NCBI RefSeq assembly: GCF_013315695.1
Contig: NZ_CP054353.1
DNA from: Escherichia coli
Lineage (GTDB): Bacteria > Pseudomonadota > Gammaproteobacteria > Enterobacterales > Enterobacteriaceae
Length of the DNA stretch: 64,000 nt
Direction: 5' to 3' (one strand)
Below are positions 5,554-64,000 of the stretch, piece after piece (within the stretch, counting starts at the first letter, position 1; every line of letters starts with the position of its first letter). Made by a program: the position numbers and the translations under genes. The notes below the pieces were generated by a model, which did no database searches, was not told the origin of the DNA, and worked only from the letters and a program-made list of their open reading frames with translations.

Positions 5554-6156
5554 TTACCAGTCGATACCCGGCTGGGCCTGAATGCCGTTATCAAAAGCAT
5601 GTTTGACGGGGCGGATTTCGCTTACCGTATCCGCCATTTTTAATATCTGACTGTGGCAACCGCGTCCGGTGACAATGACACTTTGTTGTGCCGGGCGGTT
5701 TTGCAGAGAAGCGATCACTTCTTCGGTGTCCAGATAATGGTAAGCCAGCATATAGGTCAGCTCATCAAGCACCACTAAGTCGTAACGCTTGTCAGCCAGC
5801 ATCCGTTTGCTTTCCGACCAGACCTCTTTCGCCGCGTCGATATCCGCTTGCCGGTTCTGTGTCTCCCAGGTAAAACCGGTTCCCATAATATGAAACTCAA
5901 CCCCCAGCGGCTGGAGAAGGTTGTATTCGCCGTTGTCCCATTGCCCCTTGATGTACTGCGCAACCCCCACCGTTTTGCCATGACCCACCGCGCGCGTCAC
6001 AGTACCAAACGCGGCAGTGGATTTCCCTTTGCCGTTGCCGGTGAAAACAATCAAGATCCCTTTTTTCTCTATCGCCGCCGCGACGCGCGTATCGACCTGT
6101 TCCTTCAATTTCTGCTGGCGCTGCACATGCCGTTCAGTTGAAATTCGCGCTTCCAT
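5554..6156 (-). CDS. ATP:cob(I)alamin adenosyltransferase (CobA/BtuR family), second copy
   Basis: 200 aa; P-loop VFTGNGKGKSTAAFG; near-colinear with E. coli BtuR as recalled. Confidence 0.85.
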   Translation of the reverse strand: MEARISTERHVQRQQKLKEQVDTRVAAAIEKKGILIVFTGNGKGKSTAAFGTVTRAVGHGKTVGVAQYIKGQWDNGEYNLLQPLGVEFHIMGTGFTWETQNRQADIDAAKEVWSESKRMLADKRYDLVVLDELTYMLAYHYLDTEEVIASLQNRPAQQSVIVTGRGCHSQILKMADTVSEIRPVKHAFDNGIQAQPGIDW

Positions 6157-7925: not shown

Positions 7926-9206
7926 TCAGGGCAGAGCAACGTTCGATTCATTGGGTTTTAATGCTTTACCCCGACAGCCCTCGCCGAAATGTTCGCCTTC
8001 CCACCGACTCACCATCGCAGCGCCCATTGCGTTGCTCATGACGTTTGTCGCGGAACGCCCCATATCAAGGAACGGATCAACGCCCATCAGCAAGATCAGC
8101 CCCGCTTCCGGAATATTGAACTGGTTGAGCGTGGCGGCGATAACCACCATTGAGGCGCGTGGTACGCCAGCCATTCCTTTCGAGGTCAACATCAGGATCA
8201 ACAGCATGGTGATTTGCTCACCGATGGATAAATGGATATTGCAGGCCTGGGCGATGAAAACTGTGGCGAAGGAGCAGTAGGCCATTGATCCAACGAGATT
8301 AAATGAGTAGCCAATGGGTAAGACAAAGCTGGCAATTTTGGGGGAAACGCCAAATTGCTCCAGTTTTTCAAGCGTTCCCGGAAAAGCCGCTTCAGAACTG
8401 GATGTGGTAAATGCCAGCAGGGCGGGTTCCGAAAGGGCACGGGTCAGGCGTCTGATGCAGGGGCCGACATAAACGATGGCCAGACCGATAAGCAGCACCC
8501 AAAGTAACAACATGGTGAAATAAAATTCACCCATAAAGATCCCGGCGCTCACCATAACTGCCAGTCCTCGTTCAGCAATCAATGCTGAAATAGCGGCGAA
8601 TACGGTCAGGGGAGCGAAGAGCATGACGTAGCCAGTGAGCTTTAACATGGCATGTGCCAGCGAATCTAAGGCGTGAACGATGGCGCTGCCTTTCTCACCA
8701 ATCGCCGTCAGGCTACAGCCGAGGAAAATTGAGAACACCACGATTTGCAAAATTTCATTGTGCGCCATGGCATCGACAATGCTGGTGGGGAAAGCATGCG
8801 AAATAAATACTTTTAGTGTAAAGGGTTCTGACGCGACCACTCCGGTGGTTTCGGCACCGTGTGCAACAAAATTAATTCCTGTGCCTGGCATGAAGAAATT
8901 TACCGTTATCAAGCCTAAGGCAATTGACAGCAATGAGGCGCAAATAAATAAAAAGAGTGTTTTAGAAAAAATACGACCAAGGGCTTTGGCATCTCCCATT
9001 TTAGCTATACCTACCACCAGGGTAGAGACCACTAACGGAGCGATAATCATTTTTATCAGTCGTAAGAAAATCGTCGTGAATATCGATATTTCTTGCGCAT
9101 AGAGTTTTGCGGTTTCCGGTGAAGCAGTGTTATTGAGCACTACGCCGATAATCATTCCAAGTACCAGCGCCAAAAGAATCATCGTGGTTAAACTTATTTT
9201 CTTCAT
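7926..9206 (-). CDS. DctA-like dicarboxylate/amino acid:cation symporter (DAACS family)
   Basis: Polytopic membrane protein of DctA-like length; start moved to the ATG at 9206, which is preceded by GGAGGA. Confidence 0.8.
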   Translation of the reverse strand: MKKISLTTMILLALVLGMIIGVVLNNTASPETAKLYAQEISIFTTIFLRLIKMIIAPLVVSTLVVGIAKMGDAKALGRIFSKTLFLFICASLLSIALGLITVNFFMPGTGINFVAHGAETTGVVASEPFTLKVFISHAFPTSIVDAMAHNEILQIVVFSIFLGCSLTAIGEKGSAIVHALDSLAHAMLKLTGYVMLFAPLTVFAAISALIAERGLAVMVSAGIFMGEFYFTMLLLWVLLIGLAIVYVGPCIRRLTRALSEPALLAFTTSSSEAAFPGTLEKLEQFGVSPKIASFVLPIGYSFNLVGSMAYCSFATVFIAQACNIHLSIGEQITMLLILMLTSKGMAGVPRASMVVIAATLNQFNIPEAGLILLMGVDPFLDMGRSATNVMSNAMGAAMVSRWEGEHFGEGCRGKALKPNESNVALP

Positions 9207-9684: not shown

Positions 9685-11051
9685 GCCTGAACTCCTTCTG
9701 GCGTCACCTGTTCAATATGGAAATCAAAACGCAGAGCGTCGTTGGCTTCAATCAGGTGATATATGGAAAATTCGTATACCGGCCCGCCCTGGATATCAGA
9801 AGGGGAGAACGGGAACGCCAGATTGCCTGCGGTAGCGATGCGGTTTTCATAGCCGTAGTGCAGCATGGTAGAGCGCACCAGCGAGCAAACGCTATTGGCA
9901 ATTTCCTGGGTCGGTGCAACTACATCAAGGACAATCCCCAGCTCATGCCCGGCAGTTTGCATCGGTTCATGGTCGCCCATCACCCCGTTTTTGCCGTACA
10001 GGTGGAAATTGATGCGAATGCTGTCATCGTCGAGCGACAGGTTACGCCAAACGCTGGTTTTGACTTCATCGATGATTTTATCGATCCCGGCGATCATGAT
10101 CGGGTCGCGCGTTCCTGCGATGGTCAGACAGCGGAAGCCCACCCGTCGCGCACCTTCCAGTTTCAGGGCATACGGCGTTTCTTCATGCTTAGAACCGCTG
10201 ACGTACACTTCGCCGTCATTGACCGCTTTAAATGTGCAGCCTTTCAGGTTCAACACGCCGCCAGGTCCAGGCAGGAAGTAGGGATCGGATTTCTCATACA
10301 GTGTGTGTGCAGCCGCTGACGTTTCGGTAAATTTACGCTTCGGATTAAATGTCTTCAGCGTAAAGCCGTTGTCATCAATGATGCCCATCGCACAGTCAGA
10401 GCCTGAGCCGGGCGTTGCGGCGATTGCCGCGCATTCAAGGATTTTCCCACAATGCAGCGCCAGACCTTCATCAAAGCCTTGCATGATCGGGAGCGCAGCA
10501 AAGCAGGCCGGGTCGTAAGCGCGCCCGCCCAGCACCACTTGCGCGCCTTCTTTCAGCGCCCGCTGGAAGGGTTCGATGCCCATTTGCGCGACGATATACG
10601 TACTTTCGTCAATCGCGTCGTGGGTTAACGGCGGGACAAAATCCAGCGCCGTGATTTTGCCGTTATCCAGCGCCTGGTGGACGATGGCTTTGTCAACGTC
10701 TGCCGGGATCAACGCCATCGAGAACGAGAGGTGCTCTTCCTGGGCAATCTCATGAATTATTTCTCGGCACCACTCCAGGTGTGGTGCGGCACCAGAACCG
10801 CCAGCTGTTCCGATCACCACCGGTATATTATTTTGCACGCCTGCGGTGATCATATAGCGCAGATCGCGCTTGACCCCTGCGCGATCGGTAAACGGTTTGC
10901 CTGCCCCGAGGTAGTGGGGGCCTGGATCGGAAGAGCCTGCATCAACGGCGATCAGATCGGGCGATTCTGCCATCGCTTTGCGGAAGCTCTCTTCCGGGAA
11001 TCCATACCCGAGGATTGCCGTTGGCGATAAGACTTTAAAAGAACGAGCCAT
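9681..11051 (-). CDS. DUF1446 (AtuA-like) family protein, function unknown
   Basis: 456 aa; family assignment is from memory of the N-terminal region and is unverified. Confidence 0.6.
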   Translation of the reverse strand: MARSFKVLSPTAILGYGFPEESFRKAMAESPDLIAVDAGSSDPGPHYLGAGKPFTDRAGVKRDLRYMITAGVQNNIPVVIGTAGGSGAAPHLEWCREIIHEIAQEEHLSFSMALIPADVDKAIVHQALDNGKITALDFVPPLTHDAIDESTYIVAQMGIEPFQRALKEGAQVVLGGRAYDPACFAALPIMQGFDEGLALHCGKILECAAIAATPGSGSDCAMGIIDDNGFTLKTFNPKRKFTETSAAAHTLYEKSDPYFLPGPGGVLNLKGCTFKAVNDGEVYVSGSKHEETPYALKLEGARRVGFRCLTIAGTRDPIMIAGIDKIIDEVKTSVWRNLSLDDDSIRINFHLYGKNGVMGDHEPMQTAGHELGIVLDVVAPTQEIANSVCSLVRSTMLHYGYENRIATAGNLAFPFSPSDIQGGPVYEFSIYHLIEANDALRFDFHIEQVTPEGVQA

Positions 11052-11054
11052 TTG

Positions 11055-12296
11055 TTAATCCTTAGCCTGCAACAGCGCGATAGTACGATTCATTTCGTTG
11101 AAGACGATATCGAGGCCTTCGTCAAAGCCCATCCCTGGCTTTACCAGCATACGCATAGGGCGAGCGGCAAGGGCGACGTGGACACAGGTGCGGGCACTGA
11201 CATCAGTTTCATTGCAGGTGCCGCCCTGGTACGCTTCCATGCTGTGGCTGTTGCAGTAAAGAACCGCATCGACGATGTTGTGAATACTGCCCAGATCCGG
11301 GGTTTTGATTTGCACCATGTGACAACTGGCGGCATCAGTGAAATCAACAATATCCTGGTAGGTGTTACACCATTCATCGGCCACAATTTTCACGCCGGAA
11401 CCGAGGCGCGTCAGCTCTTTGGTAATCGCGGTCAGCAGGCGAATTTGATCGGGCTTGTTACCGGCATCGACCGGCCCTTCAATGTAGAGCGGCAGGCCTT
11501 GCGCTTCTTTTTCCAGGCTGGCGATGTATTGCGCACAGCGAAGCGGATCCATATCGAAGATCAGGCCGATAGTGCCGTATACATCGATGTGCAGGGTTGG
11601 GTGGTAGCGTGCGCTGGTGCGCTTGCTCAGAATACGATCCGACAGCCAGCGGACATATTCGCGCAGTTTTTCACCTTTAAAGCCCAGTTTCTCTTCGACG
11701 TTATTAATCAGTGCATGGGGCAGCACGTCGATGCCCTTAAGGATCATCTTATCGACGGCGATATATCGATCGTCCCCGCTCTGACCAAATAATGGAATGG
11801 ATTCCGCCACGCGTGGCAACTGCCATTCATCACAGACCACTTCAGTTTTCAGACGGCCGGTTGCCAGCGCGGTAGCATCAAGCAGCGCCTGTGATAATCC
11901 GTAGCGCACGGCGGTATGCAGCAAGTTGCCGTCAATACGCAATTTGTCGAAGAAACGGGCATTCGGCAGGAAAGCATCCACATCGCGGCCTATCAGTAAT
12001 GGCTTGATATGGTCGTTGAGGAACGGAATAAAGTGCTCAGCGAGGAACAGTGGATCGCGACCACCTGCCCCGGAATACTGTACGGCAGCACAGTCACCTA
12101 CGGCGACCGCGCCGTTTTCCAGAATCAACTGTACCGATACGCACTCCCCGGCCTGACGAACGGCGTTAAACCCCTGTGTTACCGGCTCCCCGGTATAAAA
12201 AAAGCCGTCATGACCCGCTCCGTTTTTTATCGCCTGCTGGTCATCGAAATAGAATGAGGAGTAGCCAGCAGTGAACAGAGCCTGTTTTATTTTCAT
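11055..12296 (-). CDS. mal: methylaspartate ammonia-lyase (beta-methylaspartase)
   Basis: 413 aa; N-terminus MKIKQALFTAGYSSFYFDDQQAIKNGAGHDGF matches clostridial MAL. Confidence 0.9.
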   Translation of the reverse strand: MKIKQALFTAGYSSFYFDDQQAIKNGAGHDGFFYTGEPVTQGFNAVRQAGECVSVQLILENGAVAVGDCAAVQYSGAGGRDPLFLAEHFIPFLNDHIKPLLIGRDVDAFLPNARFFDKLRIDGNLLHTAVRYGLSQALLDATALATGRLKTEVVCDEWQLPRVAESIPLFGQSGDDRYIAVDKMILKGIDVLPHALINNVEEKLGFKGEKLREYVRWLSDRILSKRTSARYHPTLHIDVYGTIGLIFDMDPLRCAQYIASLEKEAQGLPLYIEGPVDAGNKPDQIRLLTAITKELTRLGSGVKIVADEWCNTYQDIVDFTDAASCHMVQIKTPDLGSIHNIVDAVLYCNSHSMEAYQGGTCNETDVSARTCVHVALAARPMRMLVKPGMGFDEGLDIVFNEMNRTIALLQAKD

Positions 12297-25966: not shown

Positions 25967-26512
<546 letters not shown>

Positions 26513-26521
26513 GAGAATTGC

Positions 26522-27313
26522 ATGAGCAGTAACTTCAGACATCAACTATTGAGTCTGTCGTTACTGGTTGGTATAGCGGCCCCCTGGGCCGCTTTTGCTC
26601 AGGCACCAATCAGTAGTGTCGGCTCAGGCTCGGTCGAAGACCGCGTCACTCAACTTGAGCGTATTTCTAATGCTCACAGCCAGCTTTTAACCCAACTCCA
26701 GCAACAACTCTCTGATAATCAATCCGATATTGATTCCCTGCGTGGTCAGATTCAGGAAAATCAGTATCAACTGAATCAGGTCGTGGAGCGGCAAAAGCAG
26801 ATCCTGTTGCAGATCGACAGCCTCAGCAGCGGTGGTGCAGCGGCGCAATCAACCAGCGGTGATCAAAGCGGTGCGGCGGCATCAACGACGCCGACAGCTG
26901 ATGCTGGTACTGCGAATGCTGGCGCGCCGGTGAAAAGCGGTGATGCAAACACGGATTACAATGCAGCTATTGCGCTGGTGCAGGATAAATCCCGCCAGGA
27001 TGACGCAATGGTGGCATTTCAGAATTTCATCAAAAATTACCCTGATTCAACTTTCCTGCCAAACGCCAATTATTGGCTGGGTCAGTTAAACTACAACAAG
27101 GGTAAAAAAGATGATGCGGCGTACTATTTTGCTTCGGTAGTGAAAAACTATCCGAAGTCACCAAAGGCTGCAGATGCGATGTTTAAAGTCGGCGTCATCA
27201 TGCAGGACAAAGGTGACACCGCAAAAGCGAAAGCCGTATACCAGCAGGTTATCAGTAAATACCCTGGTACTGATGGTGCTAAACAGGCGCAAAAACGTCT
27301 GAACGCGATGTAA
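26522..27313 (+). CDS. cpoB: cell division coordinator CpoB (YbgF)
   Basis: 263 aa with signal peptide, coiled coil and C-terminal TPR. Confidence 0.95.
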   Translation: MSSNFRHQLLSLSLLVGIAAPWAAFAQAPISSVGSGSVEDRVTQLERISNAHSQLLTQLQQQLSDNQSDIDSLRGQIQENQYQLNQVVERQKQILLQIDSLSSGGAAAQSTSGDQSGAAASTTPTADAGTANAGAPVKSGDANTDYNAAIALVQDKSRQDDAMVAFQNFIKNYPDSTFLPNANYWLGQLNYNKGKKDDAAYYFASVVKNYPKSPKAADAMFKVGVIMQDKGDTAKAKAVYQQVISKYPGTDGAKQAQKRLNAM

Positions 27314-27477: not shown

Positions 27478-27553
27478 GGGTCGTTAGCTCAGTTGGTAGA
27501 GCAGTTGACTTTTAATCAATTGGTCGCAGGTTCGAATCCTGCACGACCCACCA
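27478..27553 (+). tRNA. lysT: tRNA-Lys (UUU)
   Basis: 76 nt gggtcgttagctcagttggtagagcagttgacttttaatcaattggtcgcaggttcgaatcctgcacgacccacca. Confidence 0.97.
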
Positions 27554-27688
27554 ATCGCTAAGGTGGAAGCGGTAGTAAAACGTGAAGGATAACGTTGCGT
27601 CAGCAACGGCCCGAAGGGCGAGACGAAGTCGAGTCATCCTGCACGACCCACCACTAACATAGTTAGTTGTAGTATCCAGCGTAGTATT

Positions 27689-27764
27689 GGGTGATTAGCT
27701 CAGCTGGGAGAGCACCTCCCTTACAAGGAGGGGGTCGGCGGTTCGATCCCGTCATCACCCACCA
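27689..27764 (+). tRNA. valT: tRNA-Val (UAC)
   Basis: 76 nt gggtgattagctcagctgggagagcacctcccttacaaggagggggtcggcggttcgatcccgtcatcacccacca. Confidence 0.97.
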
Positions 27765-28096: not shown

Positions 28097-28172
28097 GGGT
28101 CGTTAGCTCAGTTGGTAGAGCAGTTGACTTTTAATCAATTGGTCGCAGGTTCGAATCCTGCACGACCCACCA
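28097..28172 (+). tRNA. lysZ: tRNA-Lys (UUU)
   Basis: Identical 76-nt Lys tRNA sequence. Confidence 0.97.
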
Positions 28173-28205
28173 TCCTGAATGATTAAAGCAGCATAATCCC
28201 GCAAG

Positions 28206-28281
28206 GGGTCGTTAGCTCAGTTGGTAGAGCAGTTGACTTTTAATCAATTGGTCGCAGGTTCGAATCCTGCACGACCCACCA
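28206..28281 (+). tRNA. lysQ: tRNA-Lys (UUU)
   Basis: Identical 76-nt Lys tRNA sequence. Confidence 0.97.
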
Positions 28282-28285
28282 ATGT

Positions 28286-28312
28286 AAAAAAGCGCCCTAA
28301 AGGCGCTTTTTT
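28286..28312 (+). terminator. rho-independent terminator after lysQ
   Basis: aaaaaagcgcc ctaa aggcgctttttt. Confidence 0.8.
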
Positions 28313-28416
28313 GCTATCTGCGATACTCAAAGATTCGAACCTGCTGCAGGTTCGAGTTGAGCGCAGCGAAACAACGGAGCCGCTCGCGGCGACGGCCCGT
28401 AGGGCGAGCGAAGCGT

Positions 28417-28471
28417 GTCATCCTGCACGACCCACCAATGTAAAAAAGCGCCCTAAAGGCGCTTTTTTGCT
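28417..28471 (+). repeat. direct repeat: tRNA 3'-end fragment plus second copy of the lysQ terminator
   Basis: gtcatcctgcacgacccaccaatgtaaaaaagcgccctaaaggcgcttttttgctat nearly duplicates 28262-28316. Confidence 0.8.
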
Positions 28472-28595
28472 ATTCAGGTATCCTCAATTTCACTTTGTAA
28501 ACCTGATGACATCGTCAGAGCTTACTGTGCAAGCAACTCTACGTCGGTGGAATTAGGCGTAATTCGAGTGACTTTTCCCCACCATTCGACTATCT

Positions 28596-63169: not shown

Positions 63170-63330
63170 GGATGGTAAAAATCTCATTTACACGCTAGTA
63201 TCGGCTTAACCACTAAACACTCTAGCCTCTGCACCTGGGTCAACTGATACGGTGCTTTGGCCGTGACAATGCTCGTAAAGATTGCCACCAGGGCGAAGGA
63301 AGAAATGACTTCGCCTCCCGTATCTGGAAA
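63170..63330 (+). promoter_or_regulatory. moaA 5' leader; candidate molybdenum-cofactor (Moco) riboswitch
   Basis: Long structured leader ending in gcctccc ... ggaaagg before the ATG; position matches the recalled Moco RNA motif; boundaries approximate. Confidence 0.5.
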
Positions 63331-63337
63331 GGTGTAC

Positions 63338-64000
63338 ATGGCTTCACAACTGACTGATGCATTTGCGCGTAAGTTTTACTACTTGCGCCTGTCGATTACC
63401 GATGTGTGTAACTTTCGTTGCACCTACTGCCTGCCGGATGGCTACAAACCGAGCGGCGTCACCAATAAAGGCTTTCTTACCGTCGATGAAATTCGCCGGG
63501 TTACGCGCGCCTTCGCCAGTCTGGGCACCGAAAAAGTCCGTCTGACGGGCGGTGAGCCGTCTTTACGCCGCGACTTTACCGATATCATCGCCGCTGTGCG
63601 AGAAAACGACGCTATCCGCCAGATTGCGGTCACCACCAATGGTTACCGTCTGGAACGCGATGTGGCGAACTGGCGCGATGCTGGACTTACTGGCATCAAC
63701 GTCAGCGTTGATAGCCTTGACGCTCGCCAGTTTCATGCCATTACCGGGCAGGATAAATTCAACCAGGTCATGGCAGGAATCGATGCTGCATTTGAGGCCG
63801 GTTTTGAGAAGGTCAAAGTCAATACCGTGCTGATGCGTGATGTTAATCATCATCAGCTCGACACCTTTCTGAACTGGATCCAGCATCGTCCCATCCAGCT
63901 GCGTTTCATCGAACTGATGGAGACGGGCGAGGGCAGCGAGCTCTTCCGTAAGCATCACATCTCTGGTCAGGTTCTGCGTGACGAGTTACTGCGTCGCGGC
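63338..64000 (+). CDS. moaA: GTP 3',8-cyclase MoaA, N-terminal part (3' end outside window)
   Basis: [31 protein letters not shown] radical-SAM motif; open to window end, so absent from the ORF track. Confidence 0.95.

Follow-up and report, generated by a model that had tools for sequence, protein, structure and literature searches.

The window analyzed here, a 64,000-nt stretch of the Escherichia coli contig NZ_CP054353.1, contains an operon of seven tRNA genes; in other E. coli strains, the corresponding operon is bordered by cpoB (ybgF) and nadA. The spacer between lysT and valT carries a string that resembles the 3' end of a tRNA. The features at this site are the following:

27478-27553, + strand: lysT, tRNA-Lys(UUU) (ARAGORN; Rfam tRNA model, 79.2 bits)
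27554-27653, + strand: short-form (type A) tRNA-linked repeat, the lysT cassette (match to Rfam RF00391; a clean 100-nt indel relative to strain 148)
27636-27653, + strand: 18-nt copy of the tRNA-Lys 3' end, ATCCTGCACGACCCACCA, the downstream direct repeat
27654-27688, + strand: original 35-nt lysT-valT spacer, all that remains where the cassette is absent (in strain 148, CTAACCTAGTTAGTTGTAGTATCCAGCGTAATATC)
27689-27764: valT

The original prediction had drawn the spacer correctly between lysT and valT (27554-27688, 135 nt) and had noticed a tRNA 3'-end-like string inside it. This string is present as the 21-nt sequence GTCATCCTGCACGACCCACCA and is located at 27633-27653, a few bases away from the position first assigned to it (27634-27656). 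In dinucleotide-preserving shuffles of the window it was absent, the expected number of matches being 0.00. The window itself contains a further exact copy at 28417-28437, after lysQ, and five other matches with three mismatches or fewer, which are the 3' ends of five genuine tRNA-Lys genes.

The string had been described as matching the acceptor and T-stem end of tRNA-Lys, and this is true of its final 18 nt, ATCCTGCACGACCCACCA, but not of the leading GTC, which is part of the repeat core and lies outside the tRNA copy. The 18 nt correspond to tRNA nt 59-76 and span T-loop nt 59-60, the 3' strands of the T stem and the acceptor stem, the discriminator, and CCA. Comparison of 27636-27653 with the end of lysT (27536-27553) gave 18 of 18 identical positions, the final 18 nt of lysT being the upstream copy of the direct repeat, and the same 18 nt terminate every tRNA-Lys gene in the operon.

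The lysT cassette belongs to the tRNA-linked repeats

The fragment forms the 3' terminus of a repeat of about 100 nt that belongs to an already-known family, the tRNA-linked repeats (TLRs; RtT in Rfam, RF00391). The observation itself is confirmed as real, but the family has been known in E. coli since its description in 1978 (Egan & Landy 1978); it was catalogued in 1999 (Rudd 1999) and summarized more recently by Stenum et al. 2021 (PMC8144298), and the lysT cassette is an unlabelled copy of it. In K-12, 22 TLR copies are distributed over ten loci, with one to five copies per locus, and their hallmark is that the 3'-terminal 18-19 bp repeat the 3'-terminal sequence of the preceding tRNA or 5S gene (PMC8144298). 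The lysT cassette has the position after a stable-RNA gene, the 18-nt identical end, and the shared core, and differs in nothing essential from the described TLRs. Five copies are present in the lysT operon of K-12, and the window strain has two of those five.

The RtT consensus of Rfam consists of the 5' half of the tRNA-Tyr T-arm, an insert of about 70 nt, and then the tRNA-Tyr 3' end. Its structural arrangement, in which the tRNA-like 3' end closes an outer helix around internal hairpins, was also found in the lysT cassette, which has the same P1-P2-P3 core, 3' end, and outer helix as rtT of the tyrT operon (Bosl & Kersten 1991). The cassette matched RF00391 over 27485-27653 with 60.6 bits, a value that clears the gathering score of 45 only by using the T-arm of lysT itself across a 44-nt insertion; short-type copies of the Arg operon score just 31 bits against the same model. 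Sub-threshold matches to the Rfam YrlA model were also obtained, and these are artefacts of two neighbouring tRNA-Lys genes.

The NCBI annotation pipeline places 'RtT sRNA' after lysQ, lysV, and proK and at four positions of the K-12 tyrT operon, and it leaves the short copies of the Lys and Arg spacers, the lysT cassette among them, unlabelled. The practical value of the present analysis lies in better annotation, as the pipeline catches the long form only.

Anatomy and predicted fold of the cassette

The cassette starts at 27554, the base directly after lysT, and its 100 nt comprise 82 nt of unique sequence followed by the 18-nt copy of the tRNA-Lys 3' end. The following elements were delimited within the unique part:

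27562-27566, + strand: GGTGG, predicted in the minimum-free-energy fold to pair with CCACC (27648-27652) of the tRNA-like end
27581-27590, + strand: antisense segment CGTGAAGGAT, the 5' strand of the outer helix
27593-27608, + strand: P1 hairpin, CGTTGC-GTCA-GCAACG
27609-27619, + strand: P2 hairpin, GCCC-GAA-GGGC, the near-invariant centre of the family
27622-27630, + strand: P3 hairpin, GAC-GAA-GTC, a co-varying helix, followed by GAGTC at 27631-27635

The antisense segment CGTGAAGGAT pairs with ATCCTGCACG (27636-27645), the first part of the tRNA copy, with a single A/G mismatch, and GGTGG also occurs in the same-position copies of Citrobacter and Klebsiella. The window copy is of the short form (type A), without the sense 5' T-arm half, most of the antisense T-arm, and the hairpin region P0, in contrast to the tyrT, proK, lysQ, and lysV copies, which are of the long form (type B). 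As judged by comparing the two, the short form probably corresponds to the long form minus about 45 internal nt, with GGAT joined to AACG.

When the RNA of the window copy was folded, the structure of minimum free energy was a four-way junction (-35.5 kcal/mol, z -2.5), in which a predicted GGUGG:CCACC helix ties up the pseudo-CCA end; the 78-nt core alone gave a z of -3.9. We also aligned 56 distinct copies, drawn from E. coli and further Enterobacterales and from a small number of bacteria outside that order, and found the elements in the order P1 (CGTTGC-N4-GCAACG), P2, a variable P3, and CGAGT(A/C). The near-invariant sequence of the alignment, ACGGCCCGNAGGGCGAG, corresponds to hairpin P2 (GCCC-GNA-GGGC): three of its four pairs are constant in the 56 sequences, the fourth deviates in 4, and in the loop the middle base alone varies.

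Pairing was retained across the alignment, with 82.5% paired cells in the 56 sequences compared to 31-50% with slid partners, and the covariation score of 0.202, compared to at most 0.085 for slid partners, was reached by none of 500 shuffles. In P3, alignment pair 66-80 occurs as CG (26 sequences), GC (19), AU (5), and UA (4). The antisense segment co-varies with the host tRNA, being GGGAGGAT in the Arg copies and GTACAGGAT in Arsenophonus, where it matches a copied tRNA variant, CCTGTA. We had considered that the antisense T-arm might be freshly copied in each host; this is unneeded, as the segments differ by about one base and compensatory point mutation suffices. Both co-variation and the minimum-free-energy fold support the outer helix, P1, P2, and P3, and the inner pairing UUCG/CGAA proposed in Rfam was unsupported in the 56-sequence alignment. 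The presence of G-U pairs at several co-varying positions favours selection acting on the RNA. Selection does act on the fold, though weakly or conditionally, since decaying copies occur and many strains lack many of the copies.

A long-form copy after lysQ

The second copy in the window follows lysQ and is embedded in a longer direct repeat:

28264-28317, + strand: first copy of a 54-nt direct repeat (repeat search, copies 100% identical), made up of the final 18 nt of lysQ and a 36-nt Rho-independent terminator
28318-28419, + strand: unique part of a long-form (type B) TLR (Rfam RtT match 28312-28437)
28420-28473, + strand: second copy of the 54-nt direct repeat, that is, the tRNA-Lys 3' end and the duplicated terminator

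In its total extent (28318-28437), this copy lies between the duplicated terminators. It contains an antisense T-arm (28332-28344), the sense 5' T-arm half GCAGGTTCGA (28346-28355), and the extra hairpin region P0 in addition to the P1-P2-P3 core. Its Rfam RtT score of 44.7 bits is slightly below the gathering score of 45, and the NCBI annotation pipeline (PGAP) calls the corresponding copy 'RtT sRNA' in other strains; in strain 148 it is missing. The role of the 36-nt unit after lysQ as a terminator is taken from PMC4176162. The terminator scan listed neither of the two + strand terminators, both of which are assigned from the sequence and PMC4176162.

Presence and absence of the cassettes

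The operon was compared in four strains, which differ in the tRNA-Lys genes that are followed by a cassette:

Window: cassettes after lysT and lysQ
K-12: cassettes after lysT, lysW, lysY, lysZ, and lysQ (all five)
Z1322HEC0006: cassettes after lysT, lysW, lysY, and lysQ
Strain 148: cassette after lysY only

Among these four strains, filled and empty alleles were found at all five tRNA-Lys sites. The differences at the four internal sites are clean indels of about 100 nt (98-100 nt), and the indel after lysQ measures 156 nt, the repeat there including the terminator. In strain 148, the lysT-valT spacer is 35 nt long. Spacers of 135, 150, 147, and 133 nt have been given for K-12 by Agrawal et al. 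2014 (PMC4176162), in which the repeats go unmentioned, and our measured lengths agree with these values.

When the 135-nt spacer of the window was searched for at a coverage of at least 80%, the lysT copy was found in 4220 of 5426 complete E. coli genomes (about 78%). The original prediction would have been contradicted by a fragment conserved and identical in all relatives, and the remaining 22% or so of complete E. coli genomes, which lack the cassette, show that it is not. Because of these genomes, and because some strains are without most of the copies, the cassette must be dispensable. Where the lysT copy is present in E. coli, the P1 loop alone varies (GTCA, ATGA, ATCA), with a constant stem. 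Tandemly amplified copies occur in the tyrT operon, in Enterobacter cloacae, and in a further genome (L165).

This polymorphism fits recombination or slippage between direct repeats, and no transposition is needed for it. By either route, the unit could be lost, duplicated, or amplified through its direct repeat of 18 nt (54 nt with the terminator), and such repeat-mediated gain and loss would lead to presence or absence at every tRNA-Lys gene of the operon.

The lysT-site copy is old and conserved where it occurs, as Citrobacter werkmanii and Klebsiella pneumoniae carry it at the position seen in E. coli (92% identity). Relative to E. coli, the 55-nt core differs there by one or two loop bases, the leader diverges more than the core, and in P3 of Klebsiella GCGAAGC replaces ACGAAGT, a compensatory change from A-U to G-C. 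Visibly decaying copies were also encountered (Klebsiella site 2, L046, and L077).

Host genes and taxonomic spread

The distribution of the family was surveyed with a 17-mer scan of one genome per species, the results of which are given as at least those found among the matches listed. About two-thirds of the matches listed are chance occurrences inside genes of GC-rich genomes, and the taxonomic range is a lower bound. Among the matches listed, the tRNA-linked copies adjoin at least Lys(UUU), Arg(ACG), Pro(CGG), Pro(UGG), and Ser(UGA) genes, and K-12 adds tRNA-Tyr as a cassette host; in K-12, the tyrT, proK, arg, and rrnB copies share the core as well. RtT matches adjoining Asn and Lys tRNAs have been reported in Pasteurellaceae (PMC4986893). 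An exact 18-nt copy of the neighbouring tRNA ends 46 of the 59 tRNA-linked copies, and this identity persists with lineage-specific tRNA variants, such as ACGCCCC in Citrobacter R56. Gene conversion with the neighbouring tRNA could keep the fragment identical to it in this way.

The core is not restricted to tRNA genes. In rrnB, it follows the 5S rRNA gene and lies between terminators T1 and T2, a copy that the Rfam RtT model misses and in which the repeat covers about 13 nt of 5S and 5 nt of trailer only. The 5S-linked TLRs RrA, RrB, and RrF share the core AACGTTGC...GCAACGGCCCGGAGGG... with the lysT cassette and, as in the cassette, carry an 18-nt repeat of the 3' region of the upstream stable RNA. 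They sit between the rrn terminators T1 and T2 much as the lysQ copy sits between its duplicated terminators. Unlike the cassette, they have 5S rRNA and not a tRNA as host, they contain GGA motifs, and they escape the Rfam RtT model.

Several arrangements of the junction between host and core bear on how the copies came about. In the long form, the T-loop is split as GGTTCGA|core|ATCC, a junction that Lys, Arg, Pro, Tyr, and Ser tRNAs have in common. An Alcanivoracaceae genome shows the core behind a duplicated 5' fragment of tRNA-Ser whose end lies in the D-loop (GGTCGA|). A hairpin repeat of Pseudomonas exists in an empty version (L084 3360-3500) and in one that contains the core (L084 ~10926-11100), and two core-filled copies of the same hairpin repeat occur in Salinicola. 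These junctions, together with the core at 5S rRNA, would be expected if the unit were a small mobile module entering hairpin loops, whether as a miniature transposable element, a single-stranded-DNA transposon, or by RNA-mediated insertion, with the tRNA fragment representing the target sequence near the 3' end of a stable RNA.

We regard such mobility as unlikely. None of the open reading frames near the copies encodes a transposase, an integrase, or a reverse transcriptase; the insert has a variable left boundary, and direct-repeat recombination explains every polymorphism seen in E. coli. Beside the Pseudomonas and Salinicola copies, no mobility gene was recognizable among the ORF translations, which we take to resemble ubiG, a deaminase, and chemotaxis receptors. 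The matches in the phage and plasmid collections were all either mislabelled pieces of chromosome or unverified contigs, and the scan of viral contigs yielded prophage edges or host DNA only. In the 56-sequence alignment, moreover, copies with the same host tRNA fall together irrespective of genus, a grouping that speaks for vertical inheritance and indicates that the spread between different tRNAs is ancient. Two narrower proposals were set aside in the course of this comparison: a T-loop-specific target, GGTTCGA^A, is weakened by the 5S-linked copy, and the idea that the 18 nt mark a reverse-transcription stop, in the manner of a retroviral primer-binding site, was dropped as unsupported by the 5S case.

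The same junctions also allow for an account in which the TLR core is an old, self-contained module that was repeatedly nested in the hairpin loops of stable RNAs through a dedicated insertion mechanism, with P2 binding a factor. This is conceivable, although we would not expect it to prove correct.

A further source of direct repeats at tRNA genes is site-specific integration. The direct repeats left by integrases of the T-loop class consist of a tRNA 3' end from the T-loop onward, and the repeat at lysT likewise starts in the T-loop, so that the cassette could be read as a scar, the attL/attR remnant of a since-deleted phage or island that used the tRNA-Lys 3' end; one prophage-edge contig (L158) does end within a TLR. 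At lysT, however, the T-loop is interrupted by the core and not regenerated (…GAGTC|ATCC…), and this core is shared by copies at six tRNA species and at 5S rRNA. Neither an integrase nor an island lies between the repeats in any strain examined, and only tRNAs, cpoB, and nadA flank the locus in four E. coli strains. The att-site scar was rejected on these grounds, and we consider it extremely improbable.

Origin of the cassette

In Yersinia pseudotuberculosis, the terminal unit of a tRNA-Lys array before nadA is a tRNA-Lys of full length that a 64-nt core interrupts between positions 58 and 59 of the T-loop (L132 357-498). This unit scored 83.1 bits as RtT, and its 5' part scored 34.7 bits as a tRNA, above the Rfam threshold. 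Providencia has a degenerate tRNA-Lys with a reduced core. Going by the sequences of these units, a tRNA-derived origin of the cassette is plausible. The Yersinia form could equally be secondary, having arisen when the stretch that separated the T-arm of a functional gene from the T-arm half in a long-form copy further downstream was deleted. If, on the other hand, the core were an old module nested in hairpin loops, the Yersinia tRNA-Lys with the core at 58/59 would represent an unprocessed insertion form.

The suggestion that the fragment is a remnant of a tRNA duplication is consequently right to the extent that Yersinia makes derivation from a tRNA plausible; what lies in the spacer is a structured cassette of about 100 nt and not a stray leftover. 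The other suggestion of the original prediction, a processing-relevant element, likewise goes in the right direction without identifying the object, and a role in processing would follow by analogy with the 5S-linked members of the family (PMC8144298). In its strict form, the suggestion amounts to a neutral relic, a decayed tRNA-Lys duplicate without any selected role that has been kept merely for want of deletion. The interrupted tRNA-Lys of Yersinia pseudotuberculosis and its tRNA-like 5' part, the degenerate tRNA-Lys of Providencia, the dispensability of the cassette in many strains, and the occurrence of decaying copies are all in line with such a relic. It is nevertheless improbable, as the near-invariant 17-mer and the compensatory changes in P3 and the outer helix have been kept across genera and six host tRNA species, the same-position copies differ in loops or compensatorily, and a core after 5S rRNA is inexplicable by a tRNA-Lys pseudogene.

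Transcription, processing, and function

The cassette is co-transcribed with the operon: Northern probes against the lysT-valT spacer reveal operon precursors in RNase P mutants, in which RNase E cuts inside the large spacers, and in the wild type no stable species of about 100 nt was reported with the spacer probes (PMC4176162). For the 5S-linked RrB, a 3' end was mapped 3 nt beyond the repeat, and recognition by RNase E was proposed (PMC8144298). Other E. coli spacers resemble the cassette in part: 3'ETS-leuZ and the spacers of metZ-metW-metV are likewise co-transcribed with tRNAs and are freed by tRNA processing, as the cassette may be. They act by pairing with small RNAs and, in contrast to the cassette, have no repeat of the tRNA end and no conserved junction.

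These examples raise the question of whether the cassette is released from the pre-tRNA as a trans-acting RNA, be it a sponge for small RNAs, a binder of Hfq or CsrA, or a mimic of uncharged tRNA. In favour of this, the fold is both stable and conserved, spacer-derived regulators such as 3'ETS-leuZ are known in E. coli, and in vitro, Hfq and CsrA bind RrA, RrB, and RrF, which are processed RNAs (PMC8144298). The copies in tRNA operons give a different picture: all 19 TLRs of this kind had scores below 0.01 as CsrA binders, the claim of a stringent-response phenotype for rtT (Bosl & Kersten 1991) was retracted in 1994, and the literature credits TLRs with no function (PMC8144298). Considering in addition that spacer probes have led to no report of a stable species in the wild type and that the lysT copy is absent in about one-fifth of strains, we attach little probability to a regulatory role in trans.

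In our view the cassette, a TLR/RtT that terminates in the tRNA-like fragment, is probably an RNA module that acts in cis or is a mere passenger, is selected for its fold, and does not regulate in trans. It is transcribed as 27554-27653 within the polycistronic lysT pre-tRNA, and the RNA most likely forms a compact four-way junction with P1, the near-invariant P2, and P3, closed by the pairing of the internal antisense segment with the tRNA-identical 3' end. Because its final 18 nt repeat the tRNA 3' end, the cassette may be cut by the nucleases that mature the 3' end of tRNA-Lys; by analogy with the 5S-linked RrB, the pseudo-CCA end would recruit the tRNA 3'-end maturation machinery, and the excised and trimmed RNA would then be degraded.

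Significance

The co-variation of the junction, the pattern of presence and absence, and the interrupted tRNA-Lys of Yersinia are undescribed in the papers on TLRs that we consulted. To the known family, the present comparison adds evidence of a selected RNA fold, a full-length tRNA-Lys interrupted in its T-loop in Yersinia, and related cores beyond Enterobacterales, in some cases without linkage to a tRNA. The natural filled and empty alleles at five sites of one operon are likewise an addition and offer ready near-isogenic comparisons. The T1-T2 terminator region of rrnB, which contains the same core, is carried by many cloning vectors. The dual terminators of rrnB with rrB are among the most used plasmid terminators (Stenum et al., PMC8144298).

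Interrupted or degenerate tRNA-Lys units and tRNA-Arg arrays

Upstream of nadA in Yersinia pseudotuberculosis (locus L132, 357-498), the 64-nt core of a tRNA-linked repeat (TLR) was found within the T-loop of a full-length tRNA-Lys gene, between nucleotides 58 and 59. A single base in its 5' 58 nt distinguishes the interrupted gene from the functional copies, and Rfam scored the locus at 83.1 bits for RtT, the TLR family, and its 5' part at 34.7 bits as tRNA. A degenerate tRNA-Lys-like unit occurs in Providencia alcalifaciens (L131, 120-225), flanked on both sides by intact tRNA-Lys genes. In this unit, GCAGGTTCAA is followed by a reduced core consisting only of hairpins P2 and P3, and the 3' end is decayed.

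The tRNA-Arg(ACG) arrays of four loci, namely the K-12 serV-argV-argY-argZ-argQ operon (L129), L003, L022, and L036, contained as many as four TLRs of the short form, all with ATCCTCCCGGATGCACCA as their 3' end. These repeats are unannotated, and the RtT model detected one of them, at only 31 bits. In the argZ spacer of L003, a TLR-like leader is retained with no core, which looks like a partial deletion.

On an IMG/VR contig from an isolate genome (L158, ~11000-11060), a valU-lysV TLR carries unrelated sequence in place of its tRNA-like end, directly after ATCC. This position lies at the border of a predicted prophage. The repeat may contain the breakpoint of an integration or a rearrangement.

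The 5S-linked copy and the lysQ terminator

The 5S-linked TLR between the K-12 rrnB terminators T1 and T2 (L183, 850-960) has hairpins P0, P1, and P2 in common with the tRNA-linked copies; the Rfam RtT search (E ≤ 0.01) returned no match to it. This segment is presumably part of the rrnB terminator carried by many cloning vectors. The lysQ terminator is present twice in the window (28282-28473), and the layout of this duplicated region matches the T1-rrB-T2 arrangement of rrnB. The rrnB terminators rank among those most used on plasmids (Stenum et al., PMC8144298).

TLR-like cores away from enterobacterial tRNA 3' ends

Pseudomonas and Salinicola (L084 and L024) carry a family of hairpin repeats that has no tRNA linkage and matched no Rfam family. 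It comprised one copy without a TLR-like core and three in which a core was inserted before TGCTCATTTAC. The copies are as follows:

L084 3360-3500, hairpin repeat copy
L084 ~10926-11100, hairpin repeat copy
L024 ~5790-5960, hairpin repeat copy
L024 ~8100-8290, hairpin repeat copy

In an Alcanivoracaceae metagenome-assembled genome (L093, 7300-7730), two tandem 156-bp units lie upstream of tRNA-Ser(GGA). Each unit starts with the region upstream of this tRNA and its initial 22 nt, which stop at GGTCGA in the D-loop; a TLR-like core and a further ~60 nt complete it. Compared with the enterobacterial arrangement, this order is mirrored. Two Acidobacteria metagenome-assembled genomes (L025, 8380-8700; L106, 700-1000) carry a core-like motif, ...GCGACGGCCCGNAGGGCGAGG-hairpin-CCGAGTCAGCCTGC, enclosed in units bounded by direct repeats. 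In L025 the repeat measures 15 nt and duplicates the 3' end of a gene that resembles a tRNA or tmRNA and lies on the opposite strand. Whether these Acidobacteria motifs are homologous to TLRs is uncertain.

Other Rfam matches in the window

YrlA (Y RNA-like) matches at 28117-28257 and similar spans, each covering two adjacent tRNA-Lys genes, were sub-threshold (44 bits vs. a gathering score of 69) and were rejected as a tandem-tRNA artefact. Two matches exceeded their gathering scores and are unrelated to the tRNA-like fragment in the lysT-valT spacer:

26413-26551, CpoB/ybgF thermometer (142.2 bits)
63206-63350, molybdenum-cofactor riboswitch (103.4 bits)
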